Part shown: in pieces, positions 11,343 through 63,496 of the stretch
How the letters are laid out: each line of letters opens with the position of its first letter
Numbering within the stretch: the first letter of the stretch is position 1
Assembly: GCA_947626065.1 (NCBI GenBank)
Contig: CANQQT010000005.1
Coordinates: 12,252 to 76,251, forward strand
Source of the DNA: an uncultured Clostridia bacterium
GTDB lineage: Bacteria > Bacillota > Clostridia > Oscillospirales > CAG-272
Length of the DNA stretch: 64,000 bases
Direction of reading: 5' to 3'
Program-made: the position numbers and the translations under genes
Notes under the pieces: model-generated
Database searches by the model: none
Seen by the model: only the letters and a program-made list of their open reading frames with translations
Told to the model about the DNA's origin: nothing

Positions 11343-11556
11343 CCACCTTTCGCACAGCTTGTCGCTTTCAAGCGGGGGGCGGGAAGTGCCGACCGAACGC
11401 GAACGGACACCAAACAAGCGACACCAAAACCGATCAAACGTCGAATAGAAGCAAACAGGACGCCCGCCGAACGCTTGACCGAAACCCACCCGGACACCAA
11501 ATGAGCAAAGCCGGACGCCGACTACAAACGACAAAACACCTCAAAGAGGAGCCGCT

Positions 11557-12261
11557 ATGAACAGAAAAGCCGTTTTTCTCGATCTTGACGATACGATTCT
11601 TGACTTTCACCGCTCGGAGGCCTTCGCGCTGAGCAAAACCCTTTCCACCGTCGGAGTCGATCCGACGCCGGAGCGGATCTCCCTTTACAGCGCCGTCAAC
11701 GACGCGCAGTGGAAGCTCCTTGAAAAAGGGGAGCTGACGCGGGACGAGGTTTTGACCCGGCGCTTCAAGATTTTCTTTGAGCAAATCGGGCTCTCCCTGC
11801 CGGCCCTGCAAATCCGGCACATTTACGAGAAGAATCTTTCGGAAAGCGCCTTTTTTCTCCCCGGCGCCCCTACGCTACTCGACAGCCTTTCAAAAGATTT
11901 CCGGCTCTTCGCCGTCTCCAACGGAACCGCCGCGGTTCAGGACGGGAGAATTTCCCTCTCGGGAATCGGAAAGTATTTTGAAAAGATCTTCATTTCGGAA
12001 AGAATCGGCTTCAACAAGCCGGATCCCCGGTTCTTCGATTTCTGCTTTTCGGAAATCAAGGAGCTGTCCCGCGCCGACACGGTTCTTATCGGCGACAGTC
12101 TGACCTCCGATATTCTGGGCGGCAAAAACGCCGGAATCGTCACGCTCTGGTTCAATCCGAAGGGCCTTCCCTGCGGGGAGACGGTTCCCGACTTCACCGC
12201 CTCCTCCCTTGAGGAAATCCCGGAAATTCTGAAAAGAATCTGGGAGGATGTGCCTTCCTGA
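11557..12261 (+). CDS. HAD-superfamily hydrolase, YjjG-like nucleotidase subfamily
   Basis: Contains the FLDLDDT (DxD) motif, SNG, and GDSLTSDILGG. AGAGGAG RBS. Confidence 0.8.
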   Translation: MNRKAVFLDLDDTILDFHRSEAFALSKTLSTVGVDPTPERISLYSAVNDAQWKLLEKGELTRDEVLTRRFKIFFEQIGLSLPALQIRHIYEKNLSESAFFLPGAPTLLDSLSKDFRLFAVSNGTAAVQDGRISLSGIGKYFEKIFISERIGFNKPDPRFFDFCFSEIKELSRADTVLIGDSLTSDILGGKNAGIVTLWFNPKGLPCGETVPDFTASSLEEIPEILKRIWEDVPS

Positions 12262-54789: not shown

Positions 54790-57735
54790 TTATCTCGCGC
54801 TCTTCTTTCTCAGGCGCAGGATTCCCAGGCCGGAAACCGTGCCGACAAGGAGAATGGCGACGGGGAGAAGAATGAAGTCTGCGGTCGCGGGGGCCGAGGT
54901 CTTGGTGTTGACAAGCACGTAGGTGCTGAGGTGATCGGTCACAAAGGACACGGTCTTTCCGTCCGCGCTCATCGTCGCCTTCATATCGGTGACGCTTCCG
55001 TCTTCCTCAGCGCGGTAAACCGCGGCCTCCCAGCCATCCGGAACCTTGAGGGTGACTTTGATCTGCCCGTCGGGCTGAACCTCGGCGCCGGTGGTGAGAT
55101 TCTTGAGGGTGACGTCATAAACGGCGGCGTCCTTGAAGGTTTGCTCGGCGGCCTTTTCGACGGCGGCAAGAGCGTCTTTCGCTTCCTGCTTCTCTTCGGT
55201 CACCGGTTCAACCGTCAGAACAACTTCTTCGTCGTAGTCGGCTTTGGGGTCGGTGTATTCCGCAACCGCGCCGCTGGTCTTGTCTTCGTACTTGTCGAGC
55301 TCCACGTAGTTCGGGTCAGCCGCTCCGCAGACGGTGCAGACGCCCTTCTCGAAGGTGTGCGCCGTTTCGGCGGAACGGGTTCCGCAACCGTTTGCGCATT
55401 CGTGCCAATGCTTCTCGGCGTCGCGGCTCCACTCGGTGGTGGCGAAGACGTGCTCGGTCTTCTCGGTTACCCAGCTGTCCTTGTCGATTTCGTTTTCGCC
55501 CTTATCGTCCGCAAAGTATTTTCCGCAATTATCGCAGGTATAATACTTCGTGTTGCCTTCCGCCGTGCAGGTCGCGTCTTTCGCGGCGGTTTCGGTCAGC
55601 TTGTGACCGGTGGCCTTCAGGACGGTGTCCTTCCTGGTCACCTCTTCGGTGCATTCTTCATCGGTATAATACTTGCCGTCGCATTCGCCGTCTTCCGCGG
55701 TGCAGGTCCAATACTCGATGTTGCCGTCTTCGGTGCAGGTCGGATCCTTCTTTTCCACCTTGTTCGGCACATGGGTATGCTTCAGGCGTCTTTCCGGTTT
55801 CACCGCGCCGCAGGCGCATTTCGAAATCTCATATTTGGGGTTGTTCGAGTCTGTTTCCCATACCCACTTATGAGCCTCTTGTTCCGCTACGGTCAGGTCG
55901 CAGGTCTCGCAGGTAACCTTGTGGGTCTCATTGTCTTGATTGTCCGTGAGAATCAGCTTGTCATGCTCTGTTTCGGCGCTCTTGTAGCCGCACGCTTCGC
56001 AGGTCTGATAGTGCGCGGTGTGGTCGTCATTCTGCGCGTATTTAAGGTCGCCCGTATGGTCTGCCTTGACGATCTCTCCGCTGCAGACGGGGCAAACCTT
56101 CCAGTGGTTGGTAGCGTCGCTCTTCCACTCGCCGCTGTCGTCATGATTCTCTGTCACGCTATAACCGCATTCGCAGGTTCCGGTATGTTGCGTCTCGCTG
56201 GTCTTCTCATAGCTCAGAACGTGCGCGGTCTCGTTGATCTTGACTTTGCACAAGGTGCAGAGATTCCAGTGACCGGTTTTATCTTCATAGGTCAGCTTGT
56301 TATCCGAGACATGGTCTTCCAGATCGGTCATATATTGACAAATATCGCAAAGCTGATAATGCTGATCGCCGGCTGGCTTGTAAGTCAGCGTGTGGGTGTC
56401 CTTGTTCATCTCGGTGTGGCATTCTGTACACTCGTTCCAGTGGCTGGTGCCGTCGGTGTGCCATTGGCCATCCGAAGTATGCGGGATCATCTTGATAACG
56501 GTCTCCTCGAAGTTCTCATATTTCTCGGTACCGTCAACGTTCTTGTAGTATACGCCTACACAGTTCGGATCCGCACTACGGCAAACCCAGTACGCCTCAT
56601 TTCCCACTTCCGTACAGGTGGCGTCTTTCTTCTCTACGGCGATCATTTCGTGCTTGTGTACGTAGTTCGTTTGCACAGTGTTATTGCAACCGTCAGTGTT
56701 GAAGCACTTTTCAAGGAACGTGCCGGGCGTTGATGTGTGTCCAAAGAGATTCTTTGAGGAAGTAGTTACGCTTCCACCGCTGATTTTTACGCCATTGATA
56801 AACACATCATGAATATTTTGAGGATTTCCGTACTTCCCAGTCTGTGATTTGTTAAAATCACCTTCACTATCGATATATCCGATAAATCCTCCACACCGGG
56901 GATTAGATGAGAACGGGGTGCTATTATCAATGGTAATTGTCAGGTTATTCACCGTAACATTTGCAAATTTCGCCTGATTAATAATGCCGCAAATTCCACC
57001 CGTCATAGTATTGTGGTCTGATTTAGTAGTAACTTTAATGGTTTCCTGATCCAATGTCAAATTTTTGACGGTTCCACTGGGATCAATATAACCAAAAAAG
57101 CCGACCATATATGCAGTTTTATTTCCATACGAAACATAGCTGCTGTTAATGTCAATGTTCTTGACGAAATGATCCGCTCCATCAAAAGTTCCTTGGAAGG
57201 GCGCACCGTCATAAATGCCGATAGGAATCCACGGCTTGCCTTCAAGGTCGATATCCGCCGTCAGCTTCACCGTCTTTTTTGTGAACCAAAATTTAATGTC
57301 AAAATTAAGCGTTGCCGCATCCTCAGGAATCTCACTGGCAATCTCGTCTTCCTTCACATAAAGTCTACCGGTGTCCGCGTTATAGAGAAAATGATCGGTA
57401 CACTCTGACGGGAGCCTATCCTTACGGAAGTTATCACTTGTATTATTTGGCTTTCCAGAAGCATCAGGTTGCCTCGATGTCCGGGCGCAAGCATTGACGA
57501 GATAAGAGAGCCCCAACAAATCCGCTGGTGTGGAAATCTCGAATTCGCTGGCATCTGGATTATCCAAATACCATTTGATATTCGGCTTTCCGTCCCATGT
57601 TCCCTCCGCTGTCGCATCTACGCTCGGCTCTGCAGAGGTGAGCAACGGGAAGAGGAACAGGCTCGCGGCAGTGGACAAAACCAAAACCGCTGCCAGCAAG
57701 GCGACAATGCCTTTTTTGCCTAACAATCTTTTCAT
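54790..57735 (-). CDS. 981-aa surface protein, paralogue 4: GLUG-motif-like N-terminal domain, a Cys/His-rich mini-module array, and an APATAD-TM-RKKSAR tail
   Basis: Signal peptide present. Contains TADIDLEGKPWIPIG, FQGTFDGADHFVKNIDI and VGFFGYIDPS. Residues 344-804 carry about ten H-x3-C-x2-C-x8-12-H units. AAGGAG RBS. Confidence 0.85.
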   Translation of the reverse strand: MKRLLGKKGIVALLAAVLVLSTAASLFLFPLLTSAEPSVDATAEGTWDGKPNIKWYLDNPDASEFEISTPADLLGLSYLVNACARTSRQPDASGKPNNTSDNFRKDRLPSECTDHFLYNADTGRLYVKEDEIASEIPEDAATLNFDIKFWFTKKTVKLTADIDLEGKPWIPIGIYDGAPFQGTFDGADHFVKNIDINSSYVSYGNKTAYMVGFFGYIDPSGTVKNLTLDQETIKVTTKSDHNTMTGGICGIINQAKFANVTVNNLTITIDNSTPFSSNPRCGGFIGYIDSEGDFNKSQTGKYGNPQNIHDVFINGVKISGGSVTTSSKNLFGHTSTPGTFLEKCFNTDGCNNTVQTNYVHKHEMIAVEKKDATCTEVGNEAYWVCRSADPNCVGVYYKNVDGTEKYENFEETVIKMIPHTSDGQWHTDGTSHWNECTECHTEMNKDTHTLTYKPAGDQHYQLCDICQYMTDLEDHVSDNKLTYEDKTGHWNLCTLCKVKINETAHVLSYEKTSETQHTGTCECGYSVTENHDDSGEWKSDATNHWKVCPVCSGEIVKADHTGDLKYAQNDDHTAHYQTCEACGYKSAETEHDKLILTDNQDNETHKVTCETCDLTVAEQEAHKWVWETDSNNPKYEISKCACGAVKPERRLKHTHVPNKVEKKDPTCTEDGNIEYWTCTAEDGECDGKYYTDEECTEEVTRKDTVLKATGHKLTETAAKDATCTAEGNTKYYTCDNCGKYFADDKGENEIDKDSWVTEKTEHVFATTEWSRDAEKHWHECANGCGTRSAETAHTFEKGVCTVCGAADPNYVELDKYEDKTSGAVAEYTDPKADYDEEVVLTVEPVTEEKQEAKDALAAVEKAAEQTFKDAAVYDVTLKNLTTGAEVQPDGQIKVTLKVPDGWEAAVYRAEEDGSVTDMKATMSADGKTVSFVTDHLSTYVLVNTKTSAPATADFILLPVAILLVGTVSGLGILRLRKKSAR

Positions 57736-57830
57736 GATTTTGCACTCCTTTTTGATTTTAATTTTTCACAGGCTTGGGTCGGTACTCTGCCCCGGCCCGC
57801 GCCTATGTGATTCGGATTTGAGAAAACCGT

Positions 57831-59606
57831 TTATTTCAGAAGAACGGTTCCCGCCTTTTTAATATCCCAGAGCGCCTCCGGGAACATTTCATCGACCCGG
57901 CTCTTCACGCCGCAGTCGGTGTTGTTGAGAAGAACGTCGAGGAAGAGCTTTCCGCTTTCGTCGAAGGAAAGCGCCTTTTTCGGAAGAGCAACCTCGGCAA
58001 GATAGCCCTCGTCGGTATCCTCGTCGCTGTCCAGGGTTCCGTAAACGGCGACCGCCGCAACAAGCCCGGAATCCTTCACTTCTTCGTAATGCACACCGTC
58101 TTCCGCCTTCTTTTCCAGCGTCGCGCGCCCGTCCGCCGTCACCGTCAAACGGTAAACCTGCTTTCCGCCGTCCGCCGAGAGGAGGAGGGACACGTCGTCC
58201 CCTTCCTTCGAGAGGAGGTTGTCGAGGCGTTCGATGAGGAAGTAGTAGTTTTCGGAATCGTGCGCGACTCTTACAGAAGCCTGCGCCTGCGACCGTGCGC
58301 CGACGAAGAGCGCGTCGGTCATCTCCTCCCAGTCGGAGGAATCCCCGTCGACGTTCACCGTTTTGTTTTCGGCGTCGATGCGGTGATTCAGGTAGTAGGT
58401 ATTGAGGAAGAGCGCGTCAAGGGAAGGATCCTTCGAGTGGCGATAGCCGGAAACCGTCATAATGGAATGCGAGGAGAGAAGCTCCAGAGAATCCCAACCG
58501 ACGGCGGATCTTCCGGCGTGATCGACGCGGCCGAAGGTGCGGAAGTTGTGCGCCGTTTCGTCGCCGAGGAAGAGGGTCAGCCCTCCCGCCGACATTGAAA
58601 CCACCGTTTCCCCCGACGGCATCTGCCGGATATAGGGGCCGTAGGAGTTCAGAACCGGCTCGAAAACAAACTTGTCGTCGGGGCCGGCCTCGGTGGGGCC
58701 GAGGGGCTTTGCCCAGTTGTCGTGGGAAACGCCGAGGGAGGTGCGGAAGGCGTCGTTCAGGTGTCTGGTCTCGCAGACGCAGGCGATATCGCCGTTGTTC
58801 AGCTCGACCGCCACCGGCATCTGGTCGTTGAAGATCTTCACGCCGTCCCGCATTCCGAGGTAGGTCTGCATCACGCGGTGGGCCTCATAGGGGGCGCCGG
58901 TGACGCGGGGCGTCCAGGTTTTGCCGTTATCGAAGGAACGCATAATCGCCGAGCCGGAGGAACGGAGCTTCGGATGATAGCCGTACCAATAGCAATAGGG
59001 GGCGATATGGGTGATGTAGCACTGCACTTCCCCGCTCCGAAGCTGGAGGAGGCAGGGTTCCCAGCTGATTCCGGGATAGATGATTTCTTCGTCGCTCCAC
59101 GTAAGGCCGTTGTCCTCCGAACGGATAAGCACCGTTCCGGCGGTTTCAAGGTCGGAGCCGTAGCAACCGTTTTCCCAGAAGGTCGCGGCGACCAGCACCG
59201 TGCCGTTTTGAAGCACGACCGCGTCGGCGGCGGCGTAGCGGCGGGTGTGGCCCTCGTACTTGCCGGGCCGTTCGGCGAAGAGAACCTGCGAGGGACCCCA
59301 CTCCGAAAGGGATTCCCCGATACGGTAGAAGACGTAGGGGCCTTGCGGGCCGTTGTTGAAGGTCATCAGGTATTTCCCGTTGGCCAGCTTCTTGACACGG
59401 GGATAGTAGGGATGGCCGCCCGCGATTTCGCCAACGCGAGGCTCGTACATTTCCCGGCGGTTGAGCATCAGGGTGGAGCTACCCGTTTCCCCGGCGTGGC
59501 TGTCGGGAACCGGCGTTCTTTTGTTCAGCTGAGCGATGGTGTGAAGGCGACCGGCCGGAGCCGATACGCCGTATTTCACGCCGTTTTCATTGGTTGTAAG
59601 ATTCAT
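57831..59606 (-). CDS. Asp-box/BNR sialidase-like protein plus CBM9-like domain, with no signal peptide
   Basis: 591 aa. Asp-boxes are SEDNGLTW and SFDNGKTW. Contains YYPRVKKL. ATG 59606 follows GAGGAA. It aligns with the neighbouring paralogue from that protein's residue ~47 onward. Confidence 0.8.
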   Translation of the reverse strand: MNLTTNENGVKYGVSAPAGRLHTIAQLNKRTPVPDSHAGETGSSTLMLNRREMYEPRVGEIAGGHPYYPRVKKLANGKYLMTFNNGPQGPYVFYRIGESLSEWGPSQVLFAERPGKYEGHTRRYAAADAVVLQNGTVLVAATFWENGCYGSDLETAGTVLIRSEDNGLTWSDEEIIYPGISWEPCLLQLRSGEVQCYITHIAPYCYWYGYHPKLRSSGSAIMRSFDNGKTWTPRVTGAPYEAHRVMQTYLGMRDGVKIFNDQMPVAVELNNGDIACVCETRHLNDAFRTSLGVSHDNWAKPLGPTEAGPDDKFVFEPVLNSYGPYIRQMPSGETVVSMSAGGLTLFLGDETAHNFRTFGRVDHAGRSAVGWDSLELLSSHSIMTVSGYRHSKDPSLDALFLNTYYLNHRIDAENKTVNVDGDSSDWEEMTDALFVGARSQAQASVRVAHDSENYYFLIERLDNLLSKEGDDVSLLLSADGGKQVYRLTVTADGRATLEKKAEDGVHYEEVKDSGLVAAVAVYGTLDSDEDTDEGYLAEVALPKKALSFDESGKLFLDVLLNNTDCGVKSRVDEMFPEALWDIKKAGTVLLK

Positions 59607-59660
59607 AGTTTCCTCGCTGTTTTTTGCTGTCTTGACCGGCCACAGGCGGGAAGCCCGCGC

Positions 59661-60000
59661 CCTTCACACGCACGCGCACGCGTATACGAAGCACGCACGC
59701 GCACGAGGCGCACACGCGGAGCACCACACACACGGGGCGCACTCGTGACACGCGACGCGCACGAAGCACAAGCAACGCACGCACATGAGGCACGCTCGCG
59801 ACACGCACACGAAACACACGCGGCACTATGCACGCGCAAAGCGCACACAACGCACACGCGCATAAAGCGCACACGCGGAGCACCACACACACGGGGCGCA
59901 CGCTTGACACACACGCACGAACTGCACACGCGCACGGGGTACAAATGCGCAACACGGCGCGCGGAATGCACACACGGGACCACCCACGCACAGGGCACAC
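59661..60000. repeat. Low-complexity CACG/GCGCAC-rich tract, T-depleted on the plus strand, with an internal perfect 35-nt direct repeat
   Basis: I counted 17 T in 340 nt. GCGCACACGCGGAGCACCACACACACGGGGCGCAC occurs at both 59708..59742 and 59867..59901. Confidence 0.85.
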
Positions 60001-60034
60001 GCGTTTTCAGGCCCTTTTCCTGCGTTCGGCCTTT

Positions 60035-60066
60035 CCCTTCCCGTCTTGCGGCGGGAAGGGATTTTT
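60035..60066 (+). terminator. Plus-strand-oriented terminator-like hairpin
   Basis: CCCTTCCCG-tcttgcgg-CGGGAAGGG followed by ATTTTT on the plus strand. On the minus strand no U-run follows it. Confidence 0.45.
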
Positions 60067-60128
60067 AAACTTTAAAGAGGGTTGGATTTTTCCGGAAGGG
60101 CCCGTAAAGGGGGACACGGAAAATTTCT

Positions 60129-62021
60129 TTAGTCGAGAACCACCGTTCCGGCTTTGGAAAGGTCGCCGCGATCCTCCGGGAAGACCTTTTCCTTCAGGGC
60201 CGTTTCTCCCTTGTCGACGTTGGAAAGCTCGGCGTTGAGGCGGAGCTTGCCGGAGCCGTCGGAGGTGATTAGGCTCTTCGGAACCGCGATTTCGGCGAGG
60301 TATCCGTCGTCCTTGCCGCGGTTTTCAAAGTTTCCGAAAAGGGTAATGGCGGATTGGATTTCACCGGAAACGGCCTCGTAGCCGTCGCCGACCTTCTTCT
60401 CCAGCGTCACCTTTCCAATCGGATCGATCGTCAGGCGATAAATCGTCGTTCCGGCGTCCGCCGAGAAGAAGAGGGTCATCGTGTCGCCGCTCTCCGAGAG
60501 GTAATCGTCGAGGCGTTCGACAAGGAAGTAAAGGTTGTCGTCGTCATGGCCGACGCGGAGGCTGGCTTGCGCCTGCGTCCGGGAGCCTACGAAGAGGGCG
60601 TCGGTGTTGTCCTTCCAATCGCCGGAGGTTCCGTCCACCTTCACCGCCGATTTCGTGGCGTTGATCCGGTGATTCAGATAATAGGTATTGAGAAGAACCG
60701 CGTACTGCGTTTTGTCGCTTCCGGAGCGGTAGGTAGAAACCGCGAGGAGAGCGTGAGGGTTGAGAACCTCAAGGGAATCCCAACCGCCGGTCTGCAGGCC
60801 GTCGAAGTTCACCTGGCCGATGTTGCGGAAGTTGTGCGCCGTCTCGTCGCCCATGAAGAGCTCCATTCCGCTGGCGCTCATCGAAACCACCGTTTCGCCG
60901 GAAAGCATCTGGCGGATGTAGGGGCCGTAGCAGTTGATGGTGCTCTCGAAGCAGAACTTATCCTCCGGGCCGGCTTCCGTCGCGCCGAGGGGTTTTGCCC
61001 AGTTGTCGTGCGTAACGCCGAGCATGGTGCGGTAGTTTCCCGACAGGTCGATCGACTCGCAGACGCAGGCGATATCGCCGTTGTTCAGCTCGACCGCCAC
61101 CGGCATCTGGTCGTTGAAGATTTTCTTTCCGTCCCGCATCCCGATGTAGGTCTGCATGACGCGGTCGGCCTCATAGGGCGGATCGGTCACGTTCGGCGTC
61201 CAGGTTTCCCCGCCGTCGAAGGAGCGGATGATCGCGGAGCCGGAGGAACGGAGAGACGGATGATAGCCGTACCACACGCAATAGGGGGCGATGTGGGTCA
61301 GGTAGCACTGGATTTCTCCGCTTTTCAGCTGAACGAGGCAAGGCTCCCAGCTGATTCCCTTGTAAATGACTTTCGCCTCGCTCCAGGTCTTGCCGTTGTC
61401 TGTCGACTTCTTCATCACGGTTCCGGAGTTGCCGAAATCGGTGCTGTAGCAGCCGCCTTCCCAATAGGTCGCGGCGACGAGGATCGTGCCGTCCTGAAGC
61501 ACCACCGAATCGGCGGCGGCGTAACGGCGGGTGTGGCCCTCATGGACGCCCGGCTCCTCCTTGAAGAGGATTGCCGGGGAGCTCCAGTTCGAAAGGGAAT
61601 CCCCGATCCGGTAATAGACGTCCGGGCCCTGCGGACCGTCGTTGAAGGTCATCAGGTATTTCCCATTGGCCAACTTCTTGACGCGGGGGTAATAGGGGGT
61701 TCCGATGTTTCCGACCTTCGGTTTCCACGTTTCGCGATTGTTCAGCATCAGGAAGGACGTCGCCGTCTCTCCCGCGTGGCTGTCGGGGGTTCCCTCCGCG
61801 GTGTTGAGCTCGCTGATTTTGTTCAGGTAGCCTTTTTCTTCGGAGGTGTTATAGATGACGCCGTTTTCGTTCACGTCGGTGCCGAGAACGAGGTCGGTGA
61901 CGTCTCCCGACGATTCCCCGCTTCCGCCGCCCCGCGAGCAAGAGGATGCGAGGGGCAGACTCAGCGTCAACGCCGCAAGCACCGCCGCCGAGGTACGGGT
62001 AAGGAAATTACTTTTTGCCAT
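60129..62021 (-). CDS. Lipoprotein: Asp-box/BNR sialidase-like domain plus CBM9-like domain
   Basis: Starts MAKSNFLTRTSAAVLAALTLSLPLASSC (lipobox). Asp-boxes are STDNGKTW and SFDGGETW. The ATG overlaps the upstream stop (TAATG), with a GAGGGAGAAG RBS. Confidence 0.85.
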   Translation of the reverse strand: MAKSNFLTRTSAAVLAALTLSLPLASSCSRGGGSGESSGDVTDLVLGTDVNENGVIYNTSEEKGYLNKISELNTAEGTPDSHAGETATSFLMLNNRETWKPKVGNIGTPYYPRVKKLANGKYLMTFNDGPQGPDVYYRIGDSLSNWSSPAILFKEEPGVHEGHTRRYAAADSVVLQDGTILVAATYWEGGCYSTDFGNSGTVMKKSTDNGKTWSEAKVIYKGISWEPCLVQLKSGEIQCYLTHIAPYCVWYGYHPSLRSSGSAIIRSFDGGETWTPNVTDPPYEADRVMQTYIGMRDGKKIFNDQMPVAVELNNGDIACVCESIDLSGNYRTMLGVTHDNWAKPLGATEAGPEDKFCFESTINCYGPYIRQMLSGETVVSMSASGMELFMGDETAHNFRNIGQVNFDGLQTGGWDSLEVLNPHALLAVSTYRSGSDKTQYAVLLNTYYLNHRINATKSAVKVDGTSGDWKDNTDALFVGSRTQAQASLRVGHDDDNLYFLVERLDDYLSESGDTMTLFFSADAGTTIYRLTIDPIGKVTLEKKVGDGYEAVSGEIQSAITLFGNFENRGKDDGYLAEIAVPKSLITSDGSGKLRLNAELSNVDKGETALKEKVFPEDRGDLSKAGTVVLD

Positions 62022-63496
62022 TAAGAATCTTCTCCCTCAAGCGCGTTCAGCTTTGCAACGTACTCCTGAATCTTCTTCTGTACGCTGATACGGTTGGCCG
62101 CGACCGTCGAAACCCATCCGGTGTCGTTGTCCTTGATGGCGTTGTCCATCAGGTGGTCGATGCCGAGGATGTAAGCGTAGGTGAAGCCGATGTCAAGAAC
62201 GACGCCGGCGCGGATCTGGTCGAAGAGGCCCTTGACCGTCGGGGTCGCCTCGGTGAACTTAACCTTCATCGCATCCTCGAAGAAAGCCGGGGTGATTCTC
62301 TGCGCGCTCTCGCTTGCGATGCACTCAAGAACGGCGCCCGCCATGCTGGCGTTCGGGGTGGTTCTCGTCACGCCGAAGGACATATAGATGTTTCTCGCGA
62401 AGGTGTAGTAGCCTTCCTGCTCCTCATCCCACTTCGGATAGGGGAGAATGCTGTAGTCGCCGTTGATTTCGGCGTACATACCGGCCATGTTGTCGAGGGT
62501 GGTCGTCGAGAAGAGCATCTGTCCGGCCTTGAAGGAGGTGCTGACGGGGACGTCCATCGAGCCGTTGTTATCACCGGTCACAAAGCCGGGGTTGCCGTGG
62601 AAGAGGTCGCAGAGCCATGCCACCTTGTCGGCGACGGTCGATTCGGTATAACCGAAGGAATAGCTTCCGTCGTTGTTTCTCGTCAGAATCCGGATGCCGA
62701 AGGCAGGACCGAAGGCGGAGAGGTGGTTGTAGTTCTGGATGCCGAAGCCGAAGGTGTCGGTTTCGATGTTGGGGTTGGAGGGGTCAACGCCCTGATAGGC
62801 CGCGACCGCGTACTGCTTCAGCAGCTCCTTCGTCCATTTTCCATCGAAGGCAACCTGCTGAATGTCGCCGTCGATGAGCTGCGCCGCAAGCTCCTTATTG
62901 AAGATCATGCACATGGTGTTCTTCAAAAGGGACAGGGAGGCGTCACCCGCCGCAAAGTAGATGCGACCGTTGACCTCGGAGTCCTCAAGGAGAGAAGCGA
63001 GCCAATAGGGCTTGGTGAAGTCGAGATACTCGACGCCGTGCAGGTCGACGAGTGCGCCGGAGGAGACCACCGGCGGGATGTGGTAGGTCGGGCAGGTGAT
63101 GAGATCCCACAGATCCTCGTTCGCCGCGTAGGCGTTCTTGATGCGGTTCTCATAGCTTGCGCGGTTCTTGGCCTCGTAGCCGGGGAGCGTTTCCATCTTA
63201 TACTCCACCGCCAACCGCTCCATCACGGCGAGGTTGGTTTCGTAGACCGCGACGTCGACCACTTCGCTGGAGCCGGCGCCGTCCTCAAAATAGAATTCGT
63301 CAACAATTTCTTCCGGGTAGAGGATGCGCACCGCCGCTCCGTTGAAGTCGAGATCGTCGGGCAGGCTGTCCAGCCGCTCGGCTCCTCCGGTTCCGACAGG
63401 CGCTTTTGTTCCTGTTGCGCCTTGGCCGCCTTTGCTGCAGGCGACAATGGCAAGCGTCATCGCAAGAAGCAGGATTACGGAAATTACCTTTTTCAT
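62021..63496 (-). CDS. Extracellular solute-binding lipoprotein (ABC sugar-binding family 1-like)
   Basis: Starts MKKVISVILLLAMTLAIVAC (lipobox) at ATG 63496 after AGGAGG. 491 aa. Confidence 0.8.
   Translation of the reverse strand: MKKVISVILLLAMTLAIVACSKGGQGATGTKAPVGTGGAERLDSLPDDLDFNGAAVRILYPEEIVDEFYFEDGAGSSEVVDVAVYETNLAVMERLAVEYKMETLPGYEAKNRASYENRIKNAYAANEDLWDLITCPTYHIPPVVSSGALVDLHGVEYLDFTKPYWLASLLEDSEVNGRIYFAAGDASLSLLKNTMCMIFNKELAAQLIDGDIQQVAFDGKWTKELLKQYAVAAYQGVDPSNPNIETDTFGFGIQNYNHLSAFGPAFGIRILTRNNDGSYSFGYTESTVADKVAWLCDLFHGNPGFVTGDNNGSMDVPVSTSFKAGQMLFSTTTLDNMAGMYAEINGDYSILPYPKWDEEQEGYYTFARNIYMSFGVTRTTPNASMAGAVLECIASESAQRITPAFFEDAMKVKFTEATPTVKGLFDQIRAGVVLDIGFTYAYILGIDHLMDNAIKDNDTGWVSTVAANRISVQKKIQEYVAKLNALEGEDS

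Follow-up and report, generated by a model that had tools for sequence, protein, structure and literature searches.

A T-depleted tract of alternating purines and pyrimidines between two BNR/sialidase-like genes of an uncultured Clostridia species: a probable duplication-built spacer in a repeat-rich genome

Genomic context

The stretch of DNA analysed here (the window) is 64,000 nt in length and carries two tandem BNR/sialidase-like paralogues on its minus strand. The upstream member, gene A (60129..62021), encodes a 630-aa lipoprotein, and its start overlaps the stop of an upstream solute-binding-protein (SBP) gene. Gene B (57831..59606) encodes a 591-aa protein without a signal peptide that is 63% identical to gene A over residues 4-590 of B. 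The gap between A and B is 522 nt long and is mostly occupied by the subject of this report, a 340-nt T-depleted tract at 59661-60000. An earlier note on this DNA had placed the tract exactly where gene B has lost the signal-peptide region that gene A retains: the position is correct, but the link is one of position only. Between the tract and gene B is an A-rich, unstructured leader (59607..59660, minus strand), which contains a ribosome-binding site, GAGGAA (59615-59610), 3 nt before the ATG.

A single sigma-70-like promoter was found upstream of the SBP gene, gene A and gene B. It precedes the SBP gene on the minus strand (63562-63534) and matches 11 of 12 consensus positions, with TTTACA, a 17-nt spacer, and TATAAT with TG just before it. 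No promoter-like sites were detected within 57500-62500. Similarly, a scan for minus-strand terminators between A and B gave no convincing candidate, just short G-U-paired stems (6-8 pairs) inside the tract. With neither signal present between the two genes, the tract should be in the mRNA: judging from these sequence signals, it is probably transcribed on the minus strand in one SBP-gene A-gene B message. Comparison between strains shows purifying selection on gene B (pN/pS 0.0055/0.051 = 0.11), which must therefore be expressed past the structure of the tract.

On the opposite side of the tract lies a 12-bp hairpin (60034-60061) that, on the plus strand alone, precedes TTTTTAAACT and resembles an intrinsic terminator for antisense transcripts of that strand. 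Read on the minus strand, the hairpin is followed by AAAGG and is not a canonical terminator for gene A. The hairpin is identical in a second strain (contig L022, discussed below), and it could either stop antisense transcripts or be a relic.

Composition, alternation and open frames

On the plus strand, the tract contains 132 C, 100 A, 91 G and 17 T, a recount that agrees with the earlier count of 17 T in 340 nt. The plus strand is 5% T, the minus strand is A-depleted, and 77% of the dinucleotide steps alternate between purine and pyrimidine. This percentage is far above the mean of 43% (sd 4.3) for all 340-nt segments of the 2.4-Mb genome: the tract ranks first (z = 7.9), with the runner-up at 63%. 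The long alternating run described in the earlier note is real, but it measures 24 nt at 59665-59688 rather than 22 nt from about 59667. It is followed by 17 more alternating runs of 8-15 nt.

All six frames are open across the tract because stop codons need T, the plus strand is almost T-free and the minus strand is almost A-free. The earlier note described these frames as Cys/Arg/Val or His/Thr/Arg low-complexity strings. None of the six shows purifying selection: their pN/pS values from the strain comparison range over 0.5-4, compared to 0.11 for gene B. On this basis, Cys/Arg/Val-rich or His/Thr/Arg-rich peptides were rejected as an explanation for the tract. TANNNT, the minimal pattern of the sigma-70 -10 promoter box, does not occur in the tract on either strand.

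Repeat anatomy

The window contains exactly two copies of the 35-mer GCGCACACGCGGAGCACCACACACACGGGGCGCAC, at 59708..59742 and 59867..59901. The two copies are perfect matches in direct orientation, 159 nt apart, and are embedded in wider copies (59696-59751 and 59855-59910) that are 91% identical over 56 nt and include the ..TGACAC extension; both the repeat and its extension were thus correctly recorded in the earlier note. These copies are part of a larger internal tandem duplication. When the tract was compared with the genome using blastn, two units of approximately 160 nt (59670-59846 and 59830-60000) aligned with 72% identity over 183 columns, and the autocorrelation of the tract has its maximum at a lag of 159 (0.47, with a background of approximately 0.31).

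Shorter periods are nested within these units. Approximately 18 purine clusters (GAAG, GAGG, GGAG, GGGG, AAAG and similar) are found in the tract at a mean spacing of 18 nt, separated by alternating CA/CG blocks of roughly 10-25 nt. Tandem Repeats Finder (TRF) reports periods of 6, 11 and 29 nt, and degenerate repeat families are present with copies of 23-56 nt and 4-8 copies per family. By its internal periodicity and repeated sub-units, the tract is a degenerate tandem repeat, or cryptically simple sequence. A short seed duplicated locally many times over would be expected to leave just such a layering of periods (6 nt, ~18 nt, 29 nt and ~160 nt).

Comparison with a second strain

A search with the gene B protein identified a 3560-nt ENA metagenome contig (L022; ERZ28617698) that encodes a 99% identical protein and has the same order of gene A, tract and gene B. 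Because this contig differs from the window throughout, it represents a different strain, and because it is independent and carries the tract between the same flanks, the tract is not an assembly artefact. The L022 tract is 337 nt in length and differs from the 340-nt tract by 12 substitutions and one 3-nt deletion (96% identity). Further strains were sought using gene B, and the next homologues are only 42-43% identical; an exact look-up of gene B gave no match.

The differences between the strains bear on the history of the 35-nt repeat. In L022, copy 1 has four differing positions plus the 3-nt deletion, all within 13 nt, while copy 2 has one difference. The clustering in copy 1 suggests that the perfect repeat in the window strain is a short gene-conversion patch, although the reverse may be the case, with a clustered change in L022 instead.

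Between the two strains, the tract has diverged by 3.5% substitutions. Synonymous divergence from L022 is 5.1% for gene B, 0.9% for the available part of gene A, and 3.6% when pooled: judged from these two strains, the tract evolves about as fast as the synonymous (neutral) sites of the genes on either side. Transversions account for 5 of the 12 substitutions. The transitions fall 6:1 on G/A over C/T positions of the plus strand (hand-calculated binomial P ~0.11), and new T is consequently rare. The contrast in synonymous divergence between gene A and gene B across 57831-62021 is a separate observation; there is probably a strain recombination breakpoint in or near the tract, as judged from these sequence differences.

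Searches for related sequences

A permissive cmscan of 59000-60700 on both strands against Rfam gave a best score of 18.5 bits, compared to a gathering score of 40, with all E values greater than 2. A known RNA family was rejected on this basis. No second copy of the tract was found in the genome by blastn: beyond the self-match and the internal duplication, all matches had E values of 0.045 or more. Homologues of the tract were likewise not found in 40 relatives or in the public genome and metagenome collections scanned. The search of the genome and its relatives for similar tracts that the earlier note had proposed therefore returned no copy, so the tract is not a common dispersed repeat, and a dispersed repeat or mobile element (REP, MITE or IS remnant) was rejected. 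There was also no excess of 15-mer units common to CGCAC-type tracts, with 47 observed and 82 in a reversed-genome control. A further candidate was a cluster of sites resembling GCGCGTG, which we take to be the Lactococcus Chi site. Genome-wide counts are 147 for this 7-mer and 126 for its complement, close to those of related 7-mers; with neither a genome-wide excess nor a strand skew, the candidate was rejected.

Repeat-filled spacers across the genome

Despite having no homologues, the tract is not alone in kind. A/T-depleted tracts, defined by an A or T content of at most 7% over 150 nt, are found at 13.2 per 100 kb in this genome (317 in total), compared to 0-1.9 per 100 kb in samples of eight relatives, including a congener (G007) with the same 57% GC content. 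Tandem-repeat loci identified by TRF, defined regardless of composition, are present at 19.5 per 100 kb (468 loci, 2.3% of the genome), compared to 0-6.5 in relatives. Relative to these genomes, the excess is approximately 5-fold for tandem repeats and approximately 10-fold for A- or T-depleted tracts. Using gene calls that are crude and miss some genes, the coding fraction is 80%, compared to 83-89% in four relatives analysed with the same gene caller, and the mean intergenic length is 245 nt, compared to 106-142 nt in relatives. We found no description of such a genome-wide pattern in the literature. The repeat loci are not confined to spacers: 184 of the 468 lie inside called genes, indicating that repeat expansion affects proteins too.

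The other tracts often have long internal repeats of their own, with no unit common to different loci. Exact internal repeats of 15 nt or more are present in 47 of 189 intergenic tracts and in none after shuffling, and the units are locus-specific, such as AAGCGCAAACAGCAC before carB, AGGCGCAACACGCAC on contig C12, and CCGGAAYGYRCC after another BNR-family paralogue on contig C73. The spacer upstream of carB is informative because it can be compared across the genus. It is 25-57 nt in length in four congeners and 97-512 nt with unrelated fillers in nine others, and in this genome alone it consists of a 227-nt T-depleted array of AAGCGCAAACAGCAC. This comparison indicates that the fillers are recent and lineage-specific. 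In five congener sequences (L144, L147, L149, L151 and L154), the carB spacer holds unrelated, palindrome-rich inserts of 227-412 nt that do contain T; fillers thus appear to turn over across the genus, with a sequence style that differs by species.

Several general explanations for these tracts were considered and rejected. A tie to transcription or replication is not supported, as the orientation of the long tracts is near-random with respect to genes (22 antisense, 24 sense, 17 divergent and 18 convergent) and has no relation to flanking GC skew. That similar tracts occur in either gene orientation argues against an RNA device for the class as a whole. A rule that T-depleted tracts run to a same-strand terminator fails because only 19 of 189 have one. 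Nor are the tracts assembly breakpoints: they are found at 18 of 210 contig ends, compared to 7.4% of random windows. Finally, loss of mismatch repair was rejected as the cause of the repeat excess, as MutS_I and MutL_C domains are present in open frames. The mutS frame is of normal length. The mutL open frame (G000:C24:9355-14390) encodes 903 aa, compared to 606-740 aa in 18 relatives, and probably has a low-complexity insertion in the linker.

Origin of the T-depletion

Depletion of T, presented in the earlier note as a special feature of the tract, loses that standing here: the genome contains 317 A/T-depleted tracts, and amplification of a short seed poor in T should give such a composition. 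A single base falls to 7% or less in 130 of the 468 tandem-repeat loci (T in 60, A in 55, C in 6 and G in 9). By hand calculation from the genome base frequencies, no more than one T is present in approximately 12.6% of random 15-mers, and the same is true for A. Amplification of random seeds would therefore make approximately 25% of loci A- or T-poor, and 24.6% are observed. The T-depletion of the tract fits this null model, in which the amplified seed happened to lack T. G- or C-poor loci are approximately 3-fold rarer than the same null predicts, so there may be an extra filter favouring A- or T-free tracts, for example against spurious promoters. A tract that lacks T, or lacks A, has no way to make a -10 box, an ATG or a stop codon, and may be better tolerated as a result.

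Predicted RNA structure

The minus-strand RNA of the tract is rich in G, U and C and is predicted to be highly structured: the fold has an energy of -235 kcal/mol over 531 nt, with z = -3.7 and none of 100 dinucleotide shuffles as good. The plus-strand RNA has z = -1.65. This asymmetry fits G-U pairing, which is present on the minus strand only. The substitutions between strains do not add to the case for the fold. Of 11 substitutions at predicted paired positions, 5 break the pair and 6 leave it intact. All of the latter are transitions, a class of change that would preserve 67% of pairs if it struck at random. Compensatory double changes were absent from the 12 substitutions between the two strains, a comparison of low power. 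A non-coding RNA, one of the possibilities in the earlier note, may be present, but it has no Rfam match behind it and pairs are kept no more often than transitions give by chance. In this folding model, a REP-like barrier to decay or an uncoupling of the genes by the tract hairpins is plausible.

Predicted Z-DNA potential

Z-DNA formation was estimated with a simplified ground-state model (not full SIBZ) for a 5-kb domain, using the B-Z transition energies of PMC3024258, Table 1. The run at 59665-59682, which is the first 18 nt of the 24-nt run, has the lowest single-run onset in the genome at sigma ~-0.040, with further sites at -0.042. Within the surrounding 5-kb domain, every Z run predicted at sigma -0.04 to -0.07 is inside the tract. 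A sigma of -0.06 turns 46 bp to the Z form in this model, none of it outside the tract, compared to 0-46 bp in random 5-kb domains. The alternation is broken by purine clusters about every 18 nt. The Z-DNA potential of the tract is real under this model but not exceptional, which weakens the proneness claimed in the earlier note: other sites come close in onset, and the number of flipped base pairs is no greater than random domains can reach.

A probable duplication-built spacer and its alternatives

We think it fairly probable that the tract is a non-coding, lineage-specific intercistronic spacer, a filler built by duplication. Its source would be a short seed, poor in T and rich in CA/CG, that was copied locally again and again through slippage during replication or through unequal exchange. 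Growth would have begun with a CACGCG-type micro-repeat and continued through sub-units of approximately 18 nt, each made up of a purine cluster and an alternating block, to a unit of approximately 160 nt that was duplicated once, the copies having since diverged to 72% identity. Occasional short gene-conversion patches would then have acted on these copies, one of them perfecting the 35-nt repeat in this strain. On this account, the T-depletion, the purine-pyrimidine alternation and the six open frames are consequences of the duplication history and not separate signals. Minus-strand transcription would place the tract in the 522-nt region between A and B of the SBP-gene A-gene B mRNA. There its RNA, rich in G, U and C, would form a succession of hairpins, and the A-rich unstructured leader after the hairpins would present the ribosome-binding site of gene B, allowing ribosome entry. 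If the hairpins influence the stability of the message or the coupling of A and B, they would do so as a by-product. A slippage or duplication origin was among the possibilities raised in the earlier note, and it is borne out by the hierarchical repeats, the neutral-like rate of change, and the genome-wide excess of locus-specific tandem repeats. The tract is the extreme case of a propensity, specific to this species, for the spacers between genes to fill with degenerate tandem repeats that differ from locus to locus, and a dedicated function is unnecessary to explain the tract.

Several observations fit this explanation poorly. The minus-strand fold beats its dinucleotide shuffles, which hints at self-complementarity beyond composition, although tandem self-complementary GY blocks would also give a fold excess. 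A neutral, slippage-prone tract might vary more in length than 340 vs 337 nt, the lengths in the two strains known. The 6:1 bias of strain transitions towards G/A positions, with few new T (P ~0.11), and the approximately 3-fold shortage of G- or C-depleted repeat loci relative to the seed-amplification null are not predicted by it, and the plus-strand terminator right after the tract has no place in the account.

The folding results also bear on a functional intercistronic RNA, in which a stack of G-C/G-U hairpins with pyrimidine loops guards the mRNA of the SBP gene and gene A from 3'-to-5' decay, or uncouples or lowers expression of gene B. The REP/BIME hairpins between malE and malF in E. 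coli are the natural comparison for decay protection or uncoupling. In its favour are the strand asymmetry of the fold (z = -3.7 on the minus strand and -1.65 on the plus), which fits G-U pairing on the minus strand only, and a sub-unit plan (GY block, YYYY stretch, GY block) that yields hairpins; the absence of a promoter or convincing minus-strand terminator between A and B, and the purifying selection on gene B, which implies expression across the tract, would also place the hairpins in a message. We nonetheless consider it unlikely, given that 5 of 11 paired-site substitutions break pairs with no compensatory changes, that the rate of change is neutral-like, that neither homologues nor an Rfam family were found in our searches, and that similar tracts occur genome-wide in either orientation to genes. 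The opposite strand offers an independent U-poor, CA-rich non-coding RNA of approximately 400 nt, running antisense from near the 5' end of gene B to the terminator at 60034-60061. The 12-bp hairpin with its TTTTT tail lies directly after the tract on the plus strand only, and is identical in the second strain, as this reading would have it. However, no plus-strand promoter-like site was found upstream of the tract, the RNA would be poorly structured (z = -1.65), a same-strand terminator follows just 19 of 189 T-depleted tracts genome-wide, and the rate of change is again neutral-like; we regard this transcript as quite improbable.

A role at the level of DNA, with CA/CG blocks flipping to Z-DNA under transcription-driven negative supercoiling and so buffering torsion between the tandem genes, receives very little credence from us. 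The tract has the top alternation in the genome, the lowest estimated onset (sigma ~-0.040 in a 5-kb domain), and all of the predicted Z runs of its surrounding domain at sigma -0.04 to -0.07. Yet its runs are at most 24 nt and are interrupted about every 18 nt by purine clusters, other genomic sites have an onset of -0.042, and the 46 bp flipped at sigma -0.06 is within the 0-46 bp of random domains. The alternation is also not specifically conserved (5 of 12 substitutions are transversions), and supercoils arriving from the two sides would largely cancel between co-directional genes of one probable operon. An assembly artefact or chimeric join might be suspected for low-complexity, repeat-rich sequence in a 105-contig draft of a metagenome-assembled genome, but this is scarcely credible given an independent contig from another strain with the same tract and flanks at 96% identity, and tracts of this type that are not enriched at contig ends (18 of 210, vs 7.4% of random windows).

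At its boldest, the tract could be read as a working part of the operon, either an mRNA hairpin array that sets the ratio of exported A to unexported B or a supercoil-sensing Z-DNA buffer; more broadly, the species may have an unrecognised peculiarity of mutation or repair that inflates intergenic DNA with locus-specific tandem repeats despite intact mutS and mutL. We hold this to be improbable.

Relationship to known systems

The duplication-built spacer has its closest parallel in cryptically simple and minisatellite-like repeats, which arise by slippage and unequal exchange. Like them, the tract is hierarchical and degenerate with a locus-specific unit, changes at a neutral-like rate, contains an apparent gene-conversion patch, has a composition inherited from its seed, and has no homologues. 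What sets it apart is its length, 340 nt being unusual and extreme for a spacer between bacterial genes, its membership of an excess of repeats across the genome of one species only, and the small change in length between the two known strains. The REP/BIME elements of enterobacteria, such as those of the malE-malF spacer, also lie between genes of an operon, as the tract probably does, and they share with it predicted very stable stem-loops that are possible barriers to decay. In contrast, REPs are dispersed imperfect palindromes of approximately 35 nt with hundreds of copies, while the tract is unique and ten times longer.

Similarities to two other systems are more limited. The alternating CG and CA/TG steps of the tract are those of the Z-forming d(CG)n and d(CA)n sequences studied in supercoiled plasmids (PMC3024258), and they make it the best Z candidate in its neighbourhood; however, it has no long unbroken run, and its predicted transition is no stronger than that of many sites in a GC-rich genome. 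The plus-strand RNA is C-rich (39% C, 27% G) and weakly structured, as are rut "C>G bubble" regions. Unlike in such regions, G is not depleted and the excess of C over G is modest, and the tract is antisense to both genes with no plus-strand promoter seen.

By itself, the tract is of curiosity value, as an extreme case among bacteria of simple sequence assembled by duplication. More can be gained from the wider result: an uncultured gut Clostridia species has approximately 20% non-coding DNA and is repeat-rich relative to congeners of equal GC content, with its mismatch-repair genes intact. This species is a natural case for how intergenic DNA grows in a small bacterial genome and for which sequences are tolerated there, such as those free of promoters, start codons and stop codons. 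For annotation, tracts that are open in six frames carry a warning, as they invite false gene calls.

Other repeat-bearing loci

A second T-depleted tract is present in the window at 11363-11572. It is A/C-rich on the sense strand, forms the 5' leader of the downstream gene, and contains repeats of CGGACACCAAA. It belongs to the same class as the tract at 59661-60000, with the opposite orientation to its genes.

Two further loci encode BNR-family paralogues. At G000:C73:1170-1636, a paralogue is followed by a T-depleted tract of approximately 370 nt made up of ~12-nt units resembling CCGGAAYGYRCC; this tract has its own direct repeat of approximately 40 nt, with a copy close to each end, and a canonical intrinsic terminator marks where it stops. 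Four tandem paralogues are found at G000:C46:4718-13048, the first of which lacks a lipoprotein signal. Their second spacer contains repeats of approximately 70 nt, a canonical promoter (TTGTCA, a 17-nt spacer and TATAAT), and a T-poor leader.

The genome also contains a dispersed non-coding repeat with a core of approximately 500-600 nt, found in at least 20 places with 77-93% identity, mostly in long intergenic regions (including C20:23600-25200, C12:322-2830, C27:8234-9129, C102:1-1892 and C53:8069-8554). This repeat has no match in Rfam; it may represent either a MITE-like element or a structured RNA not yet described.
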